In this document: positions 11,659 to 35,582 of the stretch, in pieces
How positions within the stretch are numbered: position 1 is the stretch's first letter
Layout: each line of letters starts with the position of its first letter
Source of the DNA: a virus
Lineage: Duplodnaviria; Caudoviricetes
Length of the DNA stretch: 36,916 nucleotides
Direction: 5' to 3' (one strand)
IMG/VR virus record: IMGVR_UViG_3300049893_002571
Location: 1-36,916 of that record
Program-made: the position numbers and the translations under genes
Notes under the pieces: model-generated
The model's input: only the letters and a program-made list of their open reading frames with translations
Told to the model about the DNA's origin: nothing
The model's database searches: none

Positions 11659-13029
11659 GTGGATATAGAAATTAACAACAGCGAGATAATAATAAAGAAT
11701 TATACTTCTGATTATTCGAAGAAGTTGCGCGAGTTGTTATCATATACTGATAAATCTAAAGAGTATCAGATCAGAAAGATGGCACGAAATCCATTCTCTC
11801 GTAACTCAGAATACTATAAGAAACTCGTTGCTAGTCAATACGGTACTCTAGTAGAAGAGCAAAGCGGTGTCATAACTATACCAGCTGGATTTTCGTATTT
11901 ATTCAAAAACGATCATTCTATAGATAATAGAAAAGATACGGGGATCTCAGTAGCTTTTCCTTGGAAGAACAAGCCTTTTGCTCCACGAGAATATCAGCAA
12001 GAAGCACTAGATCTTATGAGCGTTAATTATCGTGGACTTATTAATTTTGCCACTGGTTTAGGTAAGACTCTTACTGCTGTTTATGCCATCAGAGCCGTAG
12101 GCAAAAGAGCACTCATATTGTGTCCTAGCCAGAGTATCGCAGATAACTTCTATCAAGAACTCTGTAGTGCTTTTGGAGATAGTGCGGTTGGATACTTCGG
12201 CGGCGGCAAAAAACAACTGAAAGATATTACGGTTGGCATTGCTCAGTCTGTTAATAACCACATTGACAAGTTCGTCAAACATGGGCTTGGTCTGGTTATC
12301 GTAGATGAGGTTCACCATATTGCGGCGGATACATTCTTCACTATAGCTAAATCACTCTCTGGTGTAGGGCGCATGTTTGGTCTTACGGCCACAGATTTTC
12401 GATCTGATGGTAAGGACGTAATGATCCGGGCTGGTGTTGGTGAGGTATTGATAAAAAGAGATATTGTTTGGGGTATTCAGAATGGCTGGTTAGCATATCC
12501 CCATATAGTGATGCGAAATGTAGAGACTTCAGGGCGCGAGTATCCTGAAGATAAAATTAAGAATTATAAATCTCATGTATTGAACTCCCCGGAAATGAAT
12601 GAGCGGATCATTAAAGATATTCAGAAGTGCTTAGATGCTAAGAAGTCGGTACTGTGTCTCGTTGACGAGAAAGAGCATGGCAGAATTCTGGCAGAAGCCC
12701 TCGGTCTTCCGTTTGCAACGGGCGATGATAAACAATCTACCGAATACGTCAAGCAGCTTAATGCAGGCACTATTCCTGGACTTATTGGTACTGATAGCAA
12801 AGTCGGAGAAGGGACTGACACCAAGAACGTAGATGTTCTTGTGCTGGCCAACTTTGTTGCAAGCAAGGGGCCACTCTGGCAGAATCTGGGCCGCGGATTG
12901 CGCATTCATAATAGTAAAGAAGTGCTAGTACTAGATTATCGCCCCACAGGATCGAAAATGCTATCCCGTCATGCGGATCAGCGCCTTAAGCTATATAAGG
13001 CAATAACTACTAGTATTAAAGAGATTTGA
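11659..13029 (+). CDS. SF2 DExH DNA helicase (UvsW/ResIII-like)
   Basis: PREYQ, ATGLGKT, DEVHH, GLTAT, GEGTD, QNLGRGLR. Confidence 0.9.
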   Translation: MDIEINNSEIIIKNYTSDYSKKLRELLSYTDKSKEYQIRKMARNPFSRNSEYYKKLVASQYGTLVEEQSGVITIPAGFSYLFKNDHSIDNRKDTGISVAFPWKNKPFAPREYQQEALDLMSVNYRGLINFATGLGKTLTAVYAIRAVGKRALILCPSQSIADNFYQELCSAFGDSAVGYFGGGKKQLKDITVGIAQSVNNHIDKFVKHGLGLVIVDEVHHIAADTFFTIAKSLSGVGRMFGLTATDFRSDGKDVMIRAGVGEVLIKRDIVWGIQNGWLAYPHIVMRNVETSGREYPEDKIKNYKSHVLNSPEMNERIIKDIQKCLDAKKSVLCLVDEKEHGRILAEALGLPFATGDDKQSTEYVKQLNAGTIPGLIGTDSKVGEGTDTKNVDVLVLANFVASKGPLWQNLGRGLRIHNSKEVLVLDYRPTGSKMLSRHADQRLKLYKAITTSIKEI

Positions 13030-13031
13030 TG

Positions 13032-13060
13032 CTTCTCTAGGTTATAATAACCTGGAGGAG
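13032..13060 (+). promoter_or_regulatory. -10 box inside an RBS-sequestering hairpin upstream of the endolysin
   Basis: CTTCTCTAGGTTA-TAA-TAACCTGGAGGAG (13 bp, 2 G-U); TATAAT at 13043-13048. Confidence 0.7.
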
Positions 13061-13066
13061 TAAGTC

Positions 13067-13615
13067 ATGAAAATAAACCAAGACGGCCTAGATTTAATAA
13101 AAGGATTTGAGGGCGTTAGATTAGCACCCTATAAAGATCCTGTTGGTATCCCCACTATTGGGGTTGGCGCAACCTTCTATCAAGATGGTCGTAAGGTGAC
13201 AATGACCGATCCCCCTATGACAGAGGAGCAAGTTACTGAACTTCTTAAGTTTCACCTTGATAAGTTTGAAAAAGGGGTTTCTAGTCTAGTTAAAGTGCCC
13301 CTAAACTCCAATCAATTCTCTGCCCTAGTGTCTTTCGCATTCAATTGTGGAACAGGTAATCTACAAAGCAGCACTTTGCTTAAGAAACTCAATATGTTAG
13401 ACTATAAAGGTGCTGCAGACGAGTTTCTGAAATGGACCAAATCAAAGGGCCAAGAACTTCCTGGCCTAATACGTAGACGTAAGGCAGAACGAGAACTGTT
13501 CCTCAAACCTCAGACATTAACTGAGACAGCATCTGTTCAAGGAGGCATGCTTCCAGATGGTCCCTCAGAACAGGATATTAGTGACATCCTTAAGAACCTA
13601 GAAAAAGGTGTCTGA
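13067..13615 (+). CDS. Endolysin, GH24 phage lysozyme
   Basis: GLDLIKGFEG, YKDPVGIPTIGVG (E-x8-D-x5-T triad), QFSALVSFAFNCG, LPGLIRRRKAERELF; ~35-aa C-terminal extension. Confidence 0.95.
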   Translation: MKINQDGLDLIKGFEGVRLAPYKDPVGIPTIGVGATFYQDGRKVTMTDPPMTEEQVTELLKFHLDKFEKGVSSLVKVPLNSNQFSALVSFAFNCGTGNLQSSTLLKKLNMLDYKGAADEFLKWTKSKGQELPGLIRRRKAERELFLKPQTLTETASVQGGMLPDGPSEQDISDILKNLEKGV

Positions 13616-13643
13616 CCGCTCTAGTTTCTGGTAGAATTAGGTC

Positions 13644-13729
13644 TGCGGAATATACAAGTAGACAAAGTGAGCGGCCTCATAAGCCGTCGCCGAGAGGCTT
13701 CGCTGGTGCAAATCCAGCTTCCGCGTCCA
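13644..13729 (+). tRNA. tRNA with CAT anticodon (Met/fMet-like), long variable arm and encoded CCA
   Basis: Acceptor TGCGGAA/TTCCGCG + T + CCA; anticodon arm GCGGC-CTCATAA-GCCGT; variable arm C-GCC-GAGA-GGC-TTC; T arm GCTGG-TGCAAAT-CCAGC; TGgTAGAAT immediately upstream. Confidence 0.88.
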
Positions 13730-13766
13730 TTCCAGAGTATAACTCCCTAGTATAAAGGGAGTCCCC

Positions 13767-14492
13767 ATGAAAATCAATATAATCGGCGATATCGCTGGAC
13801 GCTACGATGAACTTCTACTTCTTCTCGCGAAGATGCCTGAGGCAGACCTAATTCTGTCCGTGGGAGATATGGTTGATCGTGGGCCAAAGTCTAAACAAGT
13901 TATTCAGTGGTTCATGAAGATGCAGAAAGCTGGCAAAGCCGAAGCGATCTATGGAAACCATGAAGACATGATGGTCGAGAGTCTAGTGACTGGTCGTTCT
14001 CGAGACTGGATGAATAATGGCGGTCACAAAACTCTAGAATCATATATGAAGAAGAGTGATAAAGACTTTCAGAGTGCTCTAGTCCCTAAAAGTCATATTG
14101 ACTGGCTGAAAAAACGTCCAATGTACTTTCAGACAGACGATCTGTTTGTAAGTCATGCTCCAGTTACTTCACTTAAAAATATTCCATCAGATCCATATAG
14201 TCGAGATTTCTATTTTATATGGAATCGCTACGAACCAAAAAAGCCACAAGATAAGTTTCTCATTAATGGTCACAATGGGCAGCTGCGAGAGTATAAGTGG
14301 GGCGACGGGCGTGTTATTGGCATGTGTATTGATGATAGTCACAGAGGTGTCTTAACTGGTCTTCATTGGCCAACAAAAGAGATCTTTCAACAAGAATTTC
14401 TTAAGACAGAAGAGAAACCAAAACCACCTGAGAAAGAGATGACAGAAGAAGAAAAGAAGGCACTAGATATGCTTATCTCTTGTATGTTTTAA
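13767..14492 (+). CDS. Metallophosphoesterase, PPP family (lambda NinI/ApaH-like)
   Basis: GDIAG, GDMVDRGPKS, GNHEDM, SHA, NGH. Confidence 0.85.
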   Translation: MKINIIGDIAGRYDELLLLLAKMPEADLILSVGDMVDRGPKSKQVIQWFMKMQKAGKAEAIYGNHEDMMVESLVTGRSRDWMNNGGHKTLESYMKKSDKDFQSALVPKSHIDWLKKRPMYFQTDDLFVSHAPVTSLKNIPSDPYSRDFYFIWNRYEPKKPQDKFLINGHNGQLREYKWGDGRVIGMCIDDSHRGVLTGLHWPTKEIFQQEFLKTEEKPKPPEKEMTEEEKKALDMLISCMF

Positions 14493-14950: not shown

Positions 14951-14963
14951 GTAGAATAGCAAC

Positions 14964-15650
14964 ATGAGTGATACAGATATATTAAAACTTTATATGAAAG
15001 AAGCGTGTAAGACACCGCTTCTCACCTATGCTCAAGAAGTTGAGCTGGCTAAAGAAATTGCCGAGGGAAATCAGAGATCAAGAGAGAAGCTTATCAAAGC
15101 CAATCTTCGCCTAGTTATCTCGATAGCTAAAGCATACAGTAATCGAGGTATGGCTCTTGAAGACTTGATTCAAGAGGGAAATATAGGCCTCATGAAGGCC
15201 ATTGAAAAATATGAATATCAGCGTGGATACAAATTCTCCACATATGCCACATGGTGGATTCGTCAAGCTGTAACTCGAGCTATAGCTGACAAGAATCGTC
15301 TAATTCGTCTACCCGTGCATATGGTGGAAACTTATAACAAAGTATCTAAAGCTATTAGCTTATTTGTGGCTGAGTTCGGTAGATCCCCTACCCATGAAGA
15401 GATAGCTAAGAGAGCAGGCGTATCACTAGACAAAGTTAACGATGTTATCCACTATGGATCCCCAATAGCTAGTATAGATGATATTCTAGTAGAAGATAGC
15501 GATGTTCGTTTCAGTGATACTCTTACTGACAACAGTACCCCGGTATCTGCTGCGATGGAGAACTCTATGAACGACATCGTCATTACGTCATTAAAAGATC
15601 TCTCTAGCAGAGAAGAAAAAATTTTGAGACTAAAATATGGAATAAAATGA
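14964..15650 (+). CDS. Sigma70-family factor (RpoD-like regions 1.2 to 4.1), lacking region 4.2
   Basis: [67 protein letters not shown]; ends [16 protein letters not shown]. Confidence 0.92.
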
Positions 15651-16726: not shown

Positions 16727-16767
16727 GATTAAGTATAATCCTCGCATAGTATCTATGGAGGATATCA

Positions 16768-17460
16768 GTGAGCCACAATCTTGCCAAACTCTTCACTTCT
16801 AATATAAGGGTCTCAAATCTGGGACCCTTTCATGCCGATGCTATATGGCCTGCTAATATCGAACTCTGTATTACACGAGTACCCATCCGAAAGCGAGATG
16901 GATATGATGACAAGATGATGCAAGAGTTTGCAGTTAAACTCAAGAGCCAGATGGTTAAGAATGGTATCGTATTTCTTATCTGTTATGCTCCAGTTGAAGC
17001 TAAAGCTAGACCTTTTCAAGTCGCTCATTACATGAGTGAAGCTGGTTTCAATCATATCGACAATATCGTCATCCAGAAGACCTGGTATCCAGGAAAACGC
17101 TCTGAGATTAACCTGGTTAACTCTCATGAGTATGTTCTGTATTTCTGCAATGGCGATGTGTGGAATCTTGATCGACTACCTATTCGGCAATATCTAAATA
17201 CCAGCGCAGATATTTCCTGTCCAGGGAATACATGGAAAGTCGAGACCGGATCTCTCGACGAGTCTATTCCTGAGGATCTTGCCGAACTTCTACTTCGCAT
17301 GACAGACTCTCTTCCTGGATCTATAGTCTTTGACCCATTCATGGGAAATCAATCCACTATGCAAGCATCTATAAAGCTCGGTCACTCCTTCTATGGGTTT
17401 GAGACTGATCCCAAAAGAATGCAGCGTTATGAAAAACTTGTAAAAGAGGCTAAAAAATAA
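16768..17460 (+). CDS. N4/N6 DNA-methyltransferase-like protein (beta class) with degenerate catalytic motif
   Basis: HEYVLYF, IVFDPFMG, FYGFE; the motif IV position reads LCITRVPI instead of (D/S)PPY. Confidence 0.75.
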   Translation: MSHNLAKLFTSNIRVSNLGPFHADAIWPANIELCITRVPIRKRDGYDDKMMQEFAVKLKSQMVKNGIVFLICYAPVEAKARPFQVAHYMSEAGFNHIDNIVIQKTWYPGKRSEINLVNSHEYVLYFCNGDVWNLDRLPIRQYLNTSADISCPGNTWKVETGSLDESIPEDLAELLLRMTDSLPGSIVFDPFMGNQSTMQASIKLGHSFYGFETDPKRMQRYEKLVKEAKK

Positions 17461-23475: not shown

Positions 23476-23522
23476 CGCCGTATCTGTAGAATACAACAGA
23501 ATTGTATTCAGAGGAGATACGC

Positions 23523-33057: not shown

Positions 33058-33613
33058 GATATCTGAAAAATATCTTAGGAAGAATAAAACTGCCGGTGCT
33101 GTAGCAGAGGCTGAGTCTATGAAGCTTTATGAGCTATTCATGCTCGGCTACTCATTCAACGATATCCAACAACAGTATCCGCAATACCCTGTCGCGCAGA
33201 TTATCTTAACGGCAGCTCTACGAGGCTGGTGTAAAGATAGAGAGAGGATGATGGGTTCTCTCAGAGACCGCATACAGGCCAAGGTTGTTAAGTCGGTTAT
33301 AGAGCAGGTAGATTTCTTGACCACCATGCTTTCAGTAACCAACGTCCAGCACATGGATGTTATGCGCAGATTCATTATGGATCCGACTAATAACCCTCTT
33401 CCATCTATATATGTCCAAAACATAAAAGAATACAAAGAGGTCGCAGAAGTCCTGCATAAGCTAGTTGCCGGTGTTTCACCAGGTACTGGTAAAAAGAGTG
33501 CCATGATGGATGCTTTGTCTACGCCAGTTAAAGTAGAAAAGCTAGATGAAAATAAGCAGCCACAGACTTTAGATATACGTCAACTTGCTGCTGATGCAGA
33601 AGACGATGACTAA
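32996..33613 (+). CDS. Putative terminase small subunit
   Basis: 205 aa; HTH-like LYELFMLGYSFNDIQQQY plus helical body; overlaps the terminase large subunit start. Confidence 0.6.
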   Translation: MALKRHLSQDERFGLTEEEIKISEKYLRKNKTAGAVAEAESMKLYELFMLGYSFNDIQQQYPQYPVAQIILTAALRGWCKDRERMMGSLRDRIQAKVVKSVIEQVDFLTTMLSVTNVQHMDVMRRFIMDPTNNPLPSIYVQNIKEYKEVAEVLHKLVAGVSPGTGKKSAMMDALSTPVKVEKLDENKQPQTLDIRQLAADAEDDD

Positions 33614-35582
33614 GAAGGCAACAAAGATAAAGCCCCCAAAGGGCAACATACTTAAAACTCTAACGCTAGAACAGCGTACTGAGTTATTTTTTCGTATCTG
33701 TAAAAATAAAGCAGAGTTAAAAGCCTGGATCAAATTGTTCCTAAATCTAGATCTACCGGATAAAACCGTGTCTCGCTATGCTGACACTAATCCGCTAGAT
33801 ATTGTCTGGCTTATATATGAGATTTGTGTTCTAGAAAGAAACGTCGAGGATATAGAAGAGTTGTTGTGTGTTGCTGGGCGAGGCAGCGGTAAAACTCTAG
33901 CCGTTGCTATTGCAGAGTTCATCTTGTTGTTCCACGATCAGCGCGACGTTGCTCATGTGGGTGCAATCTTATCTCAGGCTAAGCGCTGTTATCAGTATCA
34001 GCAAGGCTTCATGCTCAATGAGAGGGTGAAGCCCATACTGAATCAAAGCATAGACGGCTTTCCTGTAATGGAAAAAACAACACAGGAAAAAAGCTCATTT
34101 AATATACGCGACAGGAAGACAGGAGATCTGGTTAAAGTCGACCTAGAAGTACTCCCTTGTACTCTAAAGTCGGTCAACGGTTTTCACGGAGCCTTTGTGT
34201 CCGTGGATGAGATCGACACCGTTCAAGGTGAGGGTGTTAGAGCTTTCCAAGATATCTCCGGTATGTTGGACTCCAAGAGAGGCCGCAAATCTCTTAGGGT
34301 TGGTATATCCACACGCAAATCTAGATATGGCCTAATGAATCAGCAGATTGAAGATGCTGTTGCTCAAGGCCGTACTGTAAAGAAGTGGACGGTTCTAGAA
34401 TTTAGTGAGCGCTGCCCTGACGAGAGATCGGGAACAACACCCACGGTTGGATACTATCTTCAAGACACTATGGAAGTGATCGATGAAGAGCAGTGGAGTA
34501 AAAAAGACGGTAAGAAAAAAGAAGAATATATTAAGCATGAGTTTGCTGGTGAGGGTTGTCTAAAGTGCCCAATGGCCGCACTATGCTTGTCCGACGCCAA
34601 AAAGCAATCATCCAAATCCTCAATGTTGAAGCCAATATCTGACGCTATTAAAAAAACTAGAGAGAACGGCGCAGATTGGGCAATCTCTCAGCTTTATAAC
34701 CTAAAACCTTCTGTCGAAGGAATAGTTTATAAAGAGTTTGATGAGAAGGAACACGTGAAAAACTGGAATGAGATGTGGTATATCCTTACCAATCAAGAAT
34801 ATCCAGGTGAGTGTACACATGACATCTTTGTTAAAAAGTGTCACGCGATGGGTTTAACTTGTTATGCTGGTATTGACTGGGGCTGGTCAAACCCAAGCAC
34901 GGTGGTTTTCTTCTTTGTAGATAAGCGTGAAAATATCTATGTGGTTCGATGCGAGGGTCGCACATATACAAACAACCCTACTTGGGCACAGATAATCAGA
35001 AGTAAGTGGCACCATATGTACCGCTGCCAACTATACTTCCCTGACTTAGCAAACCCAGGCGACGCCCAAACAATGCGCACCGAAGGACTTCCTTGCCCCA
35101 GTGAAGTAGAAAAAAGCACAGAGAGTGGCATACAGGTTGTAAAGAAATGGCTGAAGAGTTTAGCCTCCGTTAATCCAAAAATTTTCTTCGCTAAAGACAC
35201 TTGCGGTCCAATAATTGTGGAGTTTGGTCTTTATCACTTTAAGACTGACGCGGCTGGCAAAATAACAGATGATGTAGAAAAAGAACACGATCACTGGTTG
35301 GATGCATTGAGGTATGCGCTGTACTCTCTCTTCGGCAAGAGCGCCGCAATAATAGCAGATCCTGATTATGAGAGCAAATCTAAGCTAGTTGATAGATTTG
35401 GTAGCTTTTCTAGAATGCCTTCTCCCGAAGAGTTTGCTGCTTCTAAGAATATACGCATTAATCCAGAGGCCGATCAGAGTAAGGCAAAACTAGGTCAAAT
35501 AGGTAAAAAGAGTGATTTAGATTCAGATGATGGCGGGGATTCAGGTATAGGCGGCGATGCATCGTTCTTATGGTCGTTCTGA
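33606..35582 (+). CDS. terL: Terminase large subunit
   Basis: Walker A AGRGSGKT, Walker B VSVDEID, motif III ISTR, nuclease motifs GIDWG and HDHWLDALRY; followed by the portal. Confidence 0.92.
   Translation: MTKKATKIKPPKGNILKTLTLEQRTELFFRICKNKAELKAWIKLFLNLDLPDKTVSRYADTNPLDIVWLIYEICVLERNVEDIEELLCVAGRGSGKTLAVAIAEFILLFHDQRDVAHVGAILSQAKRCYQYQQGFMLNERVKPILNQSIDGFPVMEKTTQEKSSFNIRDRKTGDLVKVDLEVLPCTLKSVNGFHGAFVSVDEIDTVQGEGVRAFQDISGMLDSKRGRKSLRVGISTRKSRYGLMNQQIEDAVAQGRTVKKWTVLEFSERCPDERSGTTPTVGYYLQDTMEVIDEEQWSKKDGKKKEEYIKHEFAGEGCLKCPMAALCLSDAKKQSSKSSMLKPISDAIKKTRENGADWAISQLYNLKPSVEGIVYKEFDEKEHVKNWNEMWYILTNQEYPGECTHDIFVKKCHAMGLTCYAGIDWGWSNPSTVVFFFVDKRENIYVVRCEGRTYTNNPTWAQIIRSKWHHMYRCQLYFPDLANPGDAQTMRTEGLPCPSEVEKSTESGIQVVKKWLKSLASVNPKIFFAKDTCGPIIVEFGLYHFKTDAAGKITDDVEKEHDHWLDALRYALYSLFGKSAAIIADPDYESKSKLVDRFGSFSRMPSPEEFAASKNIRINPEADQSKAKLGQIGKKSDLDSDDGGDSGIGGDASFLWSF

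Follow-up and report, generated by a model that had tools for sequence, protein, structure and literature searches.

We report that a 36.9-kb fragment of a large phage (the window, meaning the whole stretch of DNA analysed, 36,916 nt; relatives span 147–175 kb) encodes a tRNA that joins a CAU anticodon and an initiator-type acceptor stem to a long, tyrosine-type variable arm. The tRNA gene is an intact phage gene under selection, and it belongs to a family of long-armed, initiator-type CAU tRNAs that is mostly phage-borne and common in uncultured phages. Few known RNAs are as uniform as bacterial initiator tRNAs and, to our knowledge, long arms are taught as restricted to Leu, Ser, Tyr and Sec tRNAs. 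Our preferred reading, to which we give a probability of roughly 0.55, is that this tRNA would be charged with methionine, formylated and used as a backup initiator that host nucleases directed against initiator tRNA may fail to recognise. The narrower proposition that it is a Met-charged initiator is rather likely, while defence evasion as the reason for a long-armed initiator has slightly less than an even chance.

The tRNA gene and its fold

ARAGORN called a single tRNA on the window, tRNA(CAT), 86 nt long with an encoded CCA, at 13644–13729 (+), exactly where the sequence-only reading had placed it (Table 1). Every structural element listed in that reading, from the length and the CAU anticodon to each pair and loop, was confirmed by reading the sequence. 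The acceptor pairs are U1·G72, G2-C71, C3-G70, G4-C69, G5-C68, A6-U67 and A7-U66; the D stem is formed by U10·G25, A11-U24 and C12-G23, with A18 and G19 in its loop; and the variable region comprises one unpaired base, three pairs, a GAGA loop and three unpaired bases.

Table 1 Features of the tRNA gene and its surroundings in the window
Feature	Position	Strand	Basis or remark
Upstream neighbour: phage lysozyme	13067..13615	+	PF00959, phrog_7
Likely -10-type phage promoter GTAGAAT; 6 nt separate its end from the tRNA	13631..13637	+	inferred
tRNA gene, anticodon CAU, long variable arm, encoded CCA	13644..13729	+	ARAGORN, Rfam, sequence
Acceptor stem, 5' strand U1 G2 C3 G4 G5 A6 A7, initiator-type	13644..13650	+	partner 13719–13725
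D region: 3-bp stem with A11-U24, 11-nt Tyr-type loop with A18	13651..13670	+	
Anticodon arm: G29-C41, G30-C40, C31-G39, loop CUCAUAA	13671..13687	+	
14-nt variable region: 3-bp stem, GNRA tetraloop, 3 unpaired 3' bases as in tRNA-Tyr	13688..13701	+	
T arm, loop UGCAAAU; G55 is the partner of A18	13702..13718	+	
Discriminator base U73	13726	+	
Downstream neighbour: NinI-like metallophosphatase	13767..14492	+	PF00149, phrog_246
Phage sigma-70-like factor, 228 aa, regions 1.2, 2 and 3, without a region-4 match	14964..15650	+	

A local scan with Rfam model RF00005 scored the tRNA at 36.9 bits (E 3.9e-6), and an Rfam gathering scan over the whole window did not detect the gene. ARAGORN at default settings overlooked long-armed members in L002, L006 and L007. 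This matters for annotation, as both procedures can overlook long-armed CAU tRNAs. In members at L006:1469–1555, L179:1386–1472, L383 and L295, one additional base separates the T and acceptor stems; the L006 member with this base is the one that ARAGORN overlooked there. The minimum-energy fold of the window tRNA still contains the acceptor, anticodon, variable and T stems and is not significant on its own (z -1.39), so that the case against chance is a comparative one. The single covering contig (word depth 57.6), which may be the window's own source, shows no differences from the window tRNA.

A family of long-armed CAU tRNAs

We searched viral, metagenome and genome collections by pattern and applied a cloverleaf parser to 386 loci plus the window, obtaining 189 long-armed CAU tRNAs, 159 of them distinct. 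An initiator-type acceptor stem, defined by G2-C71, Y3-R70 and R4 and excluding G1-C72, is found in 109 of the 159 (110 under a slightly different rule) and not in the 50 others. The widest viral scan had an initiator-type member in 47 of 121 sampled loci, with about 990 matching stretches estimated overall, which suggests several hundred redundant contigs. The metagenome scan had one in 66 of 120 loci, and a stricter pattern applied to 185,579 GTDB genomes returned 27 loci, two of them initiator-type and both of these on MAG contigs. A D-loop pattern scan gave 77 loci with eight real tRNAs, all of which the earlier pattern scan had found too.

When compared by blastn with cultured phages and plasmids, the window tRNA gave no match; with family members as queries, the matches in cultured phages were mainly to short-armed tRNA-Met or to tRNAs for Leu, Ser, Tyr and Lys. 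Among 12 retrieved cultured-phage matches there is one long-armed initiator type, annotated simply as tRNA-Met, in the cultured cyanophage Lbo-JY46 of Leptolyngbya (PP438436.1), and the family is testable because this phage carries a member. A literature search, mostly outside subscription journals and supplements, returned no paper describing phage initiators with a long arm, or the A18/G55 change. The sequence-only reading had considered that the tRNA might prove to be a common and already described phage elongator: the form is indeed common, no description of it was found in the literature searched, and this is no ordinary elongator tRNA-Met.

A different kind of long-armed CAU tRNA, whose acceptor stem is A/U-rich and not of initiator type, is found in filamentous cyanobacteria (Calothrix, Okeania, Dapis, Aerosakkonema, Argonema) and in one further bacterium, at loci L244, L245, L247, L248, L251, L254, L257 and L263. 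A second long-armed CAU family has an elongator-Met-like acceptor stem (L127, L163, L197, L231, L235, L237, L434), and L197 has three long-armed CAU tRNAs.

Selection on the structure was assessed in an alignment of 19 sequences, namely the 18 members whose variable and D regions measure 14 and 20 nt, plus the tRNA of the relative L020; arm pairing was not a criterion for entry. Across these homologues 94.5% of 437 stem cells pair, a level reached by none of 500 shuffles and by slid controls only up to 49%. In the extra arm, 56 of 57 cells are paired, 17 of them with both sides changed (0/500 shuffles match; slid controls 19–61%). G2-C71 and C3-G70 are invariant in 19/19, both pairs having belonged to the selection rule. 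This covariation of all stems largely excludes a pseudo-tRNA, one of the outcomes that the sequence-only reading had said would overturn it.

Probable initiator identity

The window tRNA shares with E. coli tRNA-fMet (metZ) the CAU anticodon in a CUCAUAA loop, G2-C71, C3-G70, G4-C69, G5-C68, A11-U24, G29-C41, G30-C40 and six of seven T-loop bases. A weak 1:72 pair is one of the initiator determinants, as are G2-C71, C3-G70, G4-C69 and A11-U24 (PMC9976931, PMC7949028), and the CAU anticodon alone confers full Met acceptance on tRNA-Val (PMC9976931). The window tRNA differs from metZ in having U1·G72 for C1:A72, U73 for A73, C31-G39 for G31-C39 (so that the third anticodon-stem G-C pair is absent), a 14-nt arm for the 5-nt class I variable loop, a 3-bp Tyr-type D arm, and A18/G55 in place of the G18·U55 elbow. 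It departs from three textbook features of tRNA-fMet but most likely works as an initiator.

Several of these departures have parallels. The 1:72 position, a wobble in the window tRNA, is a true mismatch in 83 of 109 members. The member in L007 has every textbook initiator mark. A73, a determinant for MetRS and for formylation (PMC9976931), is present in about 80% of the family. A pyrimidine at 73 accompanies a pairable 1:72 in 13 of 26 members and is found in 9 of 83 without one (p 6e-5, relatedness ignored); the window tRNA and the Lbo-JY46 tRNA both have this combination. A pyrimidine at this position makes for a looser end pair and favours formylation. In E. coli, an initiator engineered to have U73 is functional (PMC11822699). 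As for the anticodon stem, the '3rd CG' mutant of tRNA-fMet, which has C31-G39, sustains E. coli lacking all four initiator genes and is not among the cold-sensitive mutants listed in the available text (PMC5389676). The anticodon-stem patterns of 46/109 members fall outside the viable mutants listed there, most of these patterns never having been assayed in that study.

Two features that played no part in the classification are enriched in the initiator type: R11-Y24 occurs in 79/109 members vs 9/50 others (p 1e-10), and G30-C40 in 104/109 vs 33/50 (p 2e-6), relatedness being ignored in both tests. Together with the acceptor- and D-stem match and the mutant data of PMC5389676, this bears out the earlier claim of initiator-like determinants. 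The window tRNA has none of the IleRS determinants A73, C4-G69, U12-A23 and C29-G41, and it also lacks the elongator tRNA-Met features (a firm 1-72 pair, U4-A69, A5-U68, A73) and those of tRNA-Ser (G73, C72, C11-G24, a long Ser-oriented arm). With Ile, Tyr, Ser and Cys determinants absent, a charging that does not match the anticodon, the other option raised at the outset, is unlikely.

Other CAU tRNAs in the same genomes were inspected in 15 large carrier records, 12 of them at least 90% complete. The long-armed form is the sole initiator type found in six of the 12 (G011, G013, G015, G018, G020, G023), a count that may be too high because the tRNA pattern is incomplete and overlooks some tRNAs, as it did one in G006. 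In G015 and G020 it occurs beside separate elongator-Met-type and Ile2-type CAU tRNAs, and ileX-like short CAU tRNAs are separate in G008, G015, G016, G017, G019 and G020. The other six complete genomes also have a short-armed initiator type, and therefore the long-armed form need not be the initiating tRNA; two or more divergent initiator types are present in 6/12. Among 37 loci with at least eight tRNAs, a script flagged a short-armed initiator in six, two of which resemble elongators, while a further one went unparsed. Three or four divergent initiator-type tRNAs per large phage were seen in G014 (L444, L449), G012 (L440), G022 and G016. The short-armed initiators of phi92, phiEa21-4 and Arthrobacter phage Racecar likewise have a weak 1:72, G2-C71, C3-G70 and G30-C40 with variable pairs 29-41 and 31-39, but they have no long arm and keep G18/U55.

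A tyrosine-type scaffold and an altered elbow

The proposal that the scaffold is of tRNA-Tyr type was upheld by both D-region identity and model scores. The window tRNA has the 3-bp D stem, the long D loop and the short arm with three unpaired 3' bases of tRNA-Tyr, and the likeness covers the 20-nt D region and a 3-bp variable stem ending CUUC. Its D region is identical to that of E. coli tyrU at 12/20 positions and to that of metZ at 6/20; identity to tRNA-Tyr of Xanthomonas phage Xoo-sp13 is 13/20, rising to 18/20 in the family member L154. A covariance model built from the 19 aligned members scored held-out relatives at 78–93 bits, tyrU at 74, Xoo-sp13 Tyr at 67, metZ at 59.6, ileX at 50.6, metU at 48.2 and leuW at 44.8. 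As tyrU is the best non-family score on this subfamily model, ahead of tRNA-fMet (60), the Tyr-type scaffold holds. The window tRNA differs from tRNA-Tyr in its CAU anticodon, initiator-type acceptor stem and absence of the determinants G34, U35 and A73, in place of which it has C34, A35 and U73. Of the 18 Tyr arms that could be resolved, 14 have 3 bp with three unpaired 3' bases, which makes this the commonest Tyr geometry; in Ser and Leu arms a single unpaired 3' base predominates (36/51 and 25/32). The Tyr geometry is also the commonest in the initiator-type family, where it is not universal (38/109; the rest have other arms). The likeness may have arisen by recombination or by convergence.

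The paired change at A18 and G55, first noted from the window tRNA by itself, proved real. D-loop GG is absent in 21 of 22 long-armed CAU tRNAs with G55 and present in 134 of 137 with U55; among 1006 distinct tRNAs from all loci it is absent in 37/45 with G55 vs 6/961 with U55. G55 is found on many tRNA types, and two orthologous Gln tRNAs (L398, L400) differ by both elbow changes together, so that A18/G55 appears as a real but general phage change. The swap was seen in L131, L141, L155, L398 and L400, on at least five tRNAs in L131.

In the loci examined, other phage tRNAs can have long arms too (Asn 10/47, Thr 8/39, Lys 6/48). Neither the long arm nor A18/G55 is therefore specific to initiators, and the long-armed initiator is part of a broader phage habit, and an optional one. 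The arm may be a response to some general pressure, or may reflect drift within the tolerance of the synthetases. Individual cases are both tRNA-Lys genes of Caulobacter phage phiCbK (L499:272–455), the tRNA-Asn of phi92 (L387:2391–2475) and a tRNA-Ile(UAU) in a relative of the window phage (L398:600–691).

Proposed function and alternative explanations

In the mechanism that we propose, the cloverleaf, extra arm and A18/G55 elbow, kept by compensatory change across many phages, would belong to a tRNA transcribed from the -10-type phage promoter just upstream. Following established identity rules, host MetRS would read the CAU anticodon, and host formyltransferase would accept the weak U1·G72 together with G2-C71, C3-G70, G4-C69 and A11-U24, with U73 holding the acceptor end open. 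G29-C41, G30-C40 and C31-G39 would pass the P-site check, as they do in E. coli tRNA-fMet. The short Tyr-oriented arm would be tolerated because SerRS and LeuRS refuse Tyr-shaped tRNAs and TyrRS needs G34/U35. In the least certain step, the altered anticodon stem, elbow and arm would have been selected for hiding from VapC-type nucleases.

An elongator or dual-use tRNA-Met, poorly formylated and carried by EF-Tu to internal AUG codons, is an unlikely alternative whose appeal lies in the pairable U1·G72, in U73 and C31-G39, which depart from the initiator consensus, and in the entry of unformylated tRNA-fMet into elongation (PMC7949028). The acceptor stem, however, is identical to that of E. 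coli metU at only 2/7 positions, the family favours a true 1:72 mismatch (83/109, and C1:A72 in L020), elongator-type CAU tRNAs are encoded separately in the same genomes, and the model scores metZ (59.6) above metU (48.2). Less likely again would be a decoy or structural RNA that takes no part in translation and sequesters toxins or enzymes directed at initiators. Its stand-alone, optional gene in a swappable slot and the several divergent copies per genome would suit such a role, and some allo-tRNAs are translation-inactive and linked to toxin–antitoxin loci (PMC5389517); yet the anticodon arm of a decoy would be expected to mimic that of the host, and only 3/109 members match E. coli in this arm, and here the formyltransferase and P-site determinants are kept while positions next to the anticodon loop change.

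Charging with Ser, Leu, Tyr or Cys, leading to misread AUG or to a non-Met protein start, is very unlikely. Overlap does exist with the Ser set (long arm, G2-C71, R4-Y69, G30-C40) and the Cys set (U73, G2-C71, C3-G70) in Table 1 of PMC9976931, and allo-tRNAs with U73 take Ser (PMC5389517). The arm geometry, with 3 bp and three unpaired 3' bases, is nevertheless the commonest Tyr type and not that of Ser or Leu; the tRNA is without G73, C72 and C11-G24 for Ser, G34/U35 for Tyr, and the GCA anticodon and G15:G48 for Cys; about 80% of the family has A73; and CAU by itself suffices for Met acceptance in tRNA-Val (PMC9976931). Allo-tRNAs resemble the window tRNA in having a long arm on an unexpected anticodon, in metagenomes and phages, but their acceptor/T stems are 8/4 or 9/3 and their identity is mostly Ser (PMC5389517), the window tRNA being 7/5; the available text of that paper has no matches for 'initiator' or 'fMet'. 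A tRNA-Ile2, in which TilS would make lysidine at C34 so that AUA is read, seems highly improbable: AUA is frequent in the window genes (233 of 757 Ile codons), against which stand the complete absence of A73, C4-G69, U12-A23 and C29-G41, the separate ileX-like tRNAs of six carrier genomes and the ileX model score of 50.6. That the gene is a decaying pseudo-tRNA or a chance fold, as the Rfam score of 36.9 bits and the weak fold z-score might suggest, is scarcely plausible when all stems covary, the CCA is intact and a compensated orthologue lies at the same site with conserved flanks.

Possible evasion of nucleases

VapC toxins, among them VapC1 of Bosea sp. (PMC8522696), cut tRNA-fMet in the anticodon stem-loop (PMC7180214, PMC4705866), and swapping the anticodon stem shields the tRNA-Lys of T5 from PARIS (PMC11464382). 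In the long-armed family all three anticodon G-C pairs are intact in only 32/109 members, and the 109 members have 66 distinct anticodon arms, three of the members being identical to E. coli in this arm. This diversity fits an escape from nucleases that cut the initiator anticodon arm. Short-armed phage initiators vary similarly (canonical anticodon stem in 3/27). The T5 tRNA-Lys and the cases surveyed in PMC10264068 are alike in that the phage copy departs from that of the host near the anticodon; they differ in being elongators with tested resistance. Enterobacterial phages are reported to avoid, in general, encoding tRNA-fMet (PMC10264068), and the available text of that survey has no match for 'variable' and no mention of variable arms.

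AtaT recognises acceptor pairs 4–6, G4G5G6 (PMC7595197). These pairs are fully retained in 44/109 members, and two of the three are in the window tRNA. Escape from AtaT as the purpose of the arm is unsupported, since AtaT binds the acceptor stem (PMC7595197).

The broadest picture, of a widespread chimeric phage initiator with fMet identity on a Tyr core and a swapped elbow that would escape the enzymes destroying tRNA-fMet, is tentative and stands clearly below an even chance. If it were true, attack on initiator tRNA would be a major and poorly charted anti-phage defence, and the bacterial initiation machinery would accept a class II tRNA. Such a family would reveal the real needs of MetRS, formyltransferase, IF2 and the P site, its 109 variants amounting to a natural mutational scan in which G30-C40 is kept, 31-39 varies and 73 tracks 1:72. 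It would also supply initiator scaffolds that are orthogonal or resist toxins, and would direct attention to phage defences that cut initiators.

Genomic setting

Besides lysozyme and the sigma factor, the window encodes tail genes, primase, helicases, GroEL, SbcCD, DNA polymerase III alpha, RecA, terminase and portal. The sole run containing the full window is a freshwater sediment metagenome, possibly its source, and no RNA dataset containing the window was among the matches listed. Host assignment by protein matches failed (polymerase matches about 25% identical, named sigma-factor matches about 48%). Stop-codon recoding was ruled out for the window phage, as code 11 gives intact genes and 2 of 40 ORFs end in TAG.

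The tRNA gene stands alone between the lysozyme and phosphatase genes. An orthologous long-armed CAU tRNA occupies the same site in only one of 26 relative loci (L020), where it has C1:A72, A73, A18/G55, a compensatory arm change and conserved flanks. A CUA tRNA lies nearby in 10/26 relative loci, some of which share a contig; elsewhere in the relatives the same slot is occupied by a PTH2 gene together with a CUA tRNA, or by other genes. G001 (167.5 kb), the closest complete relative, lacks tRNA genes altogether, and because relatives fill the slot differently the tRNA gene is best seen as an optional cassette. The post-lysozyme slot looks like a swappable translation cassette. In close relatives (L016:3255–3965, L021) it holds a small ORF, a PTH2 peptidyl-tRNA hydrolase, for which a Pfam match in L016 gives support, and a short-armed CUA tRNA; the PTH2/CUA-tRNA slot recurs in L028–L031, L035, L037 and L040. 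TAG still ends genes in most loci with the amber (CUA) tRNA.

A sigma-70 consensus scan found no promoter on the + strand. The phage sigma-70-like factor is a candidate reader of the -10-only motif before the tRNA. Nine of 16 GTAKAAT sites in the window lie at most 45 nt upstream of a same-strand gene start (about 2.6% expected), an enrichment that is only suggestive because the motif was picked after the data had been seen. The motif also precedes the tRNA by 5–6 nt in L020, L002 and L123, and a -10-like hexamer at that spacing is found in only 12/109 of the family, in several cases within AT-rich sequence. GTAGAAT ends only 6 nt before the start codon of the sigma-factor gene (window 14951–14964) and 9 nt before the polymerase ORF (window 23486–23502), placements that would yield leaderless or nearly leaderless mRNAs.

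Hairpins are predicted over the ribosome-binding sites of the lysozyme (13022–13069), phosphatase (13742–13762) and methylase (16740–16770) genes, with a TATAAT-like motif in or beside their loops, and are reminiscent of T4 late-gene control; the phosphatase hairpin is retained in L020 with compensatory changes. The terminase large subunit is long (665 aa; window 33585–35582), and an insert at residues ~300–380 contains cysteines and gives a weak, below-cutoff Pfam match.
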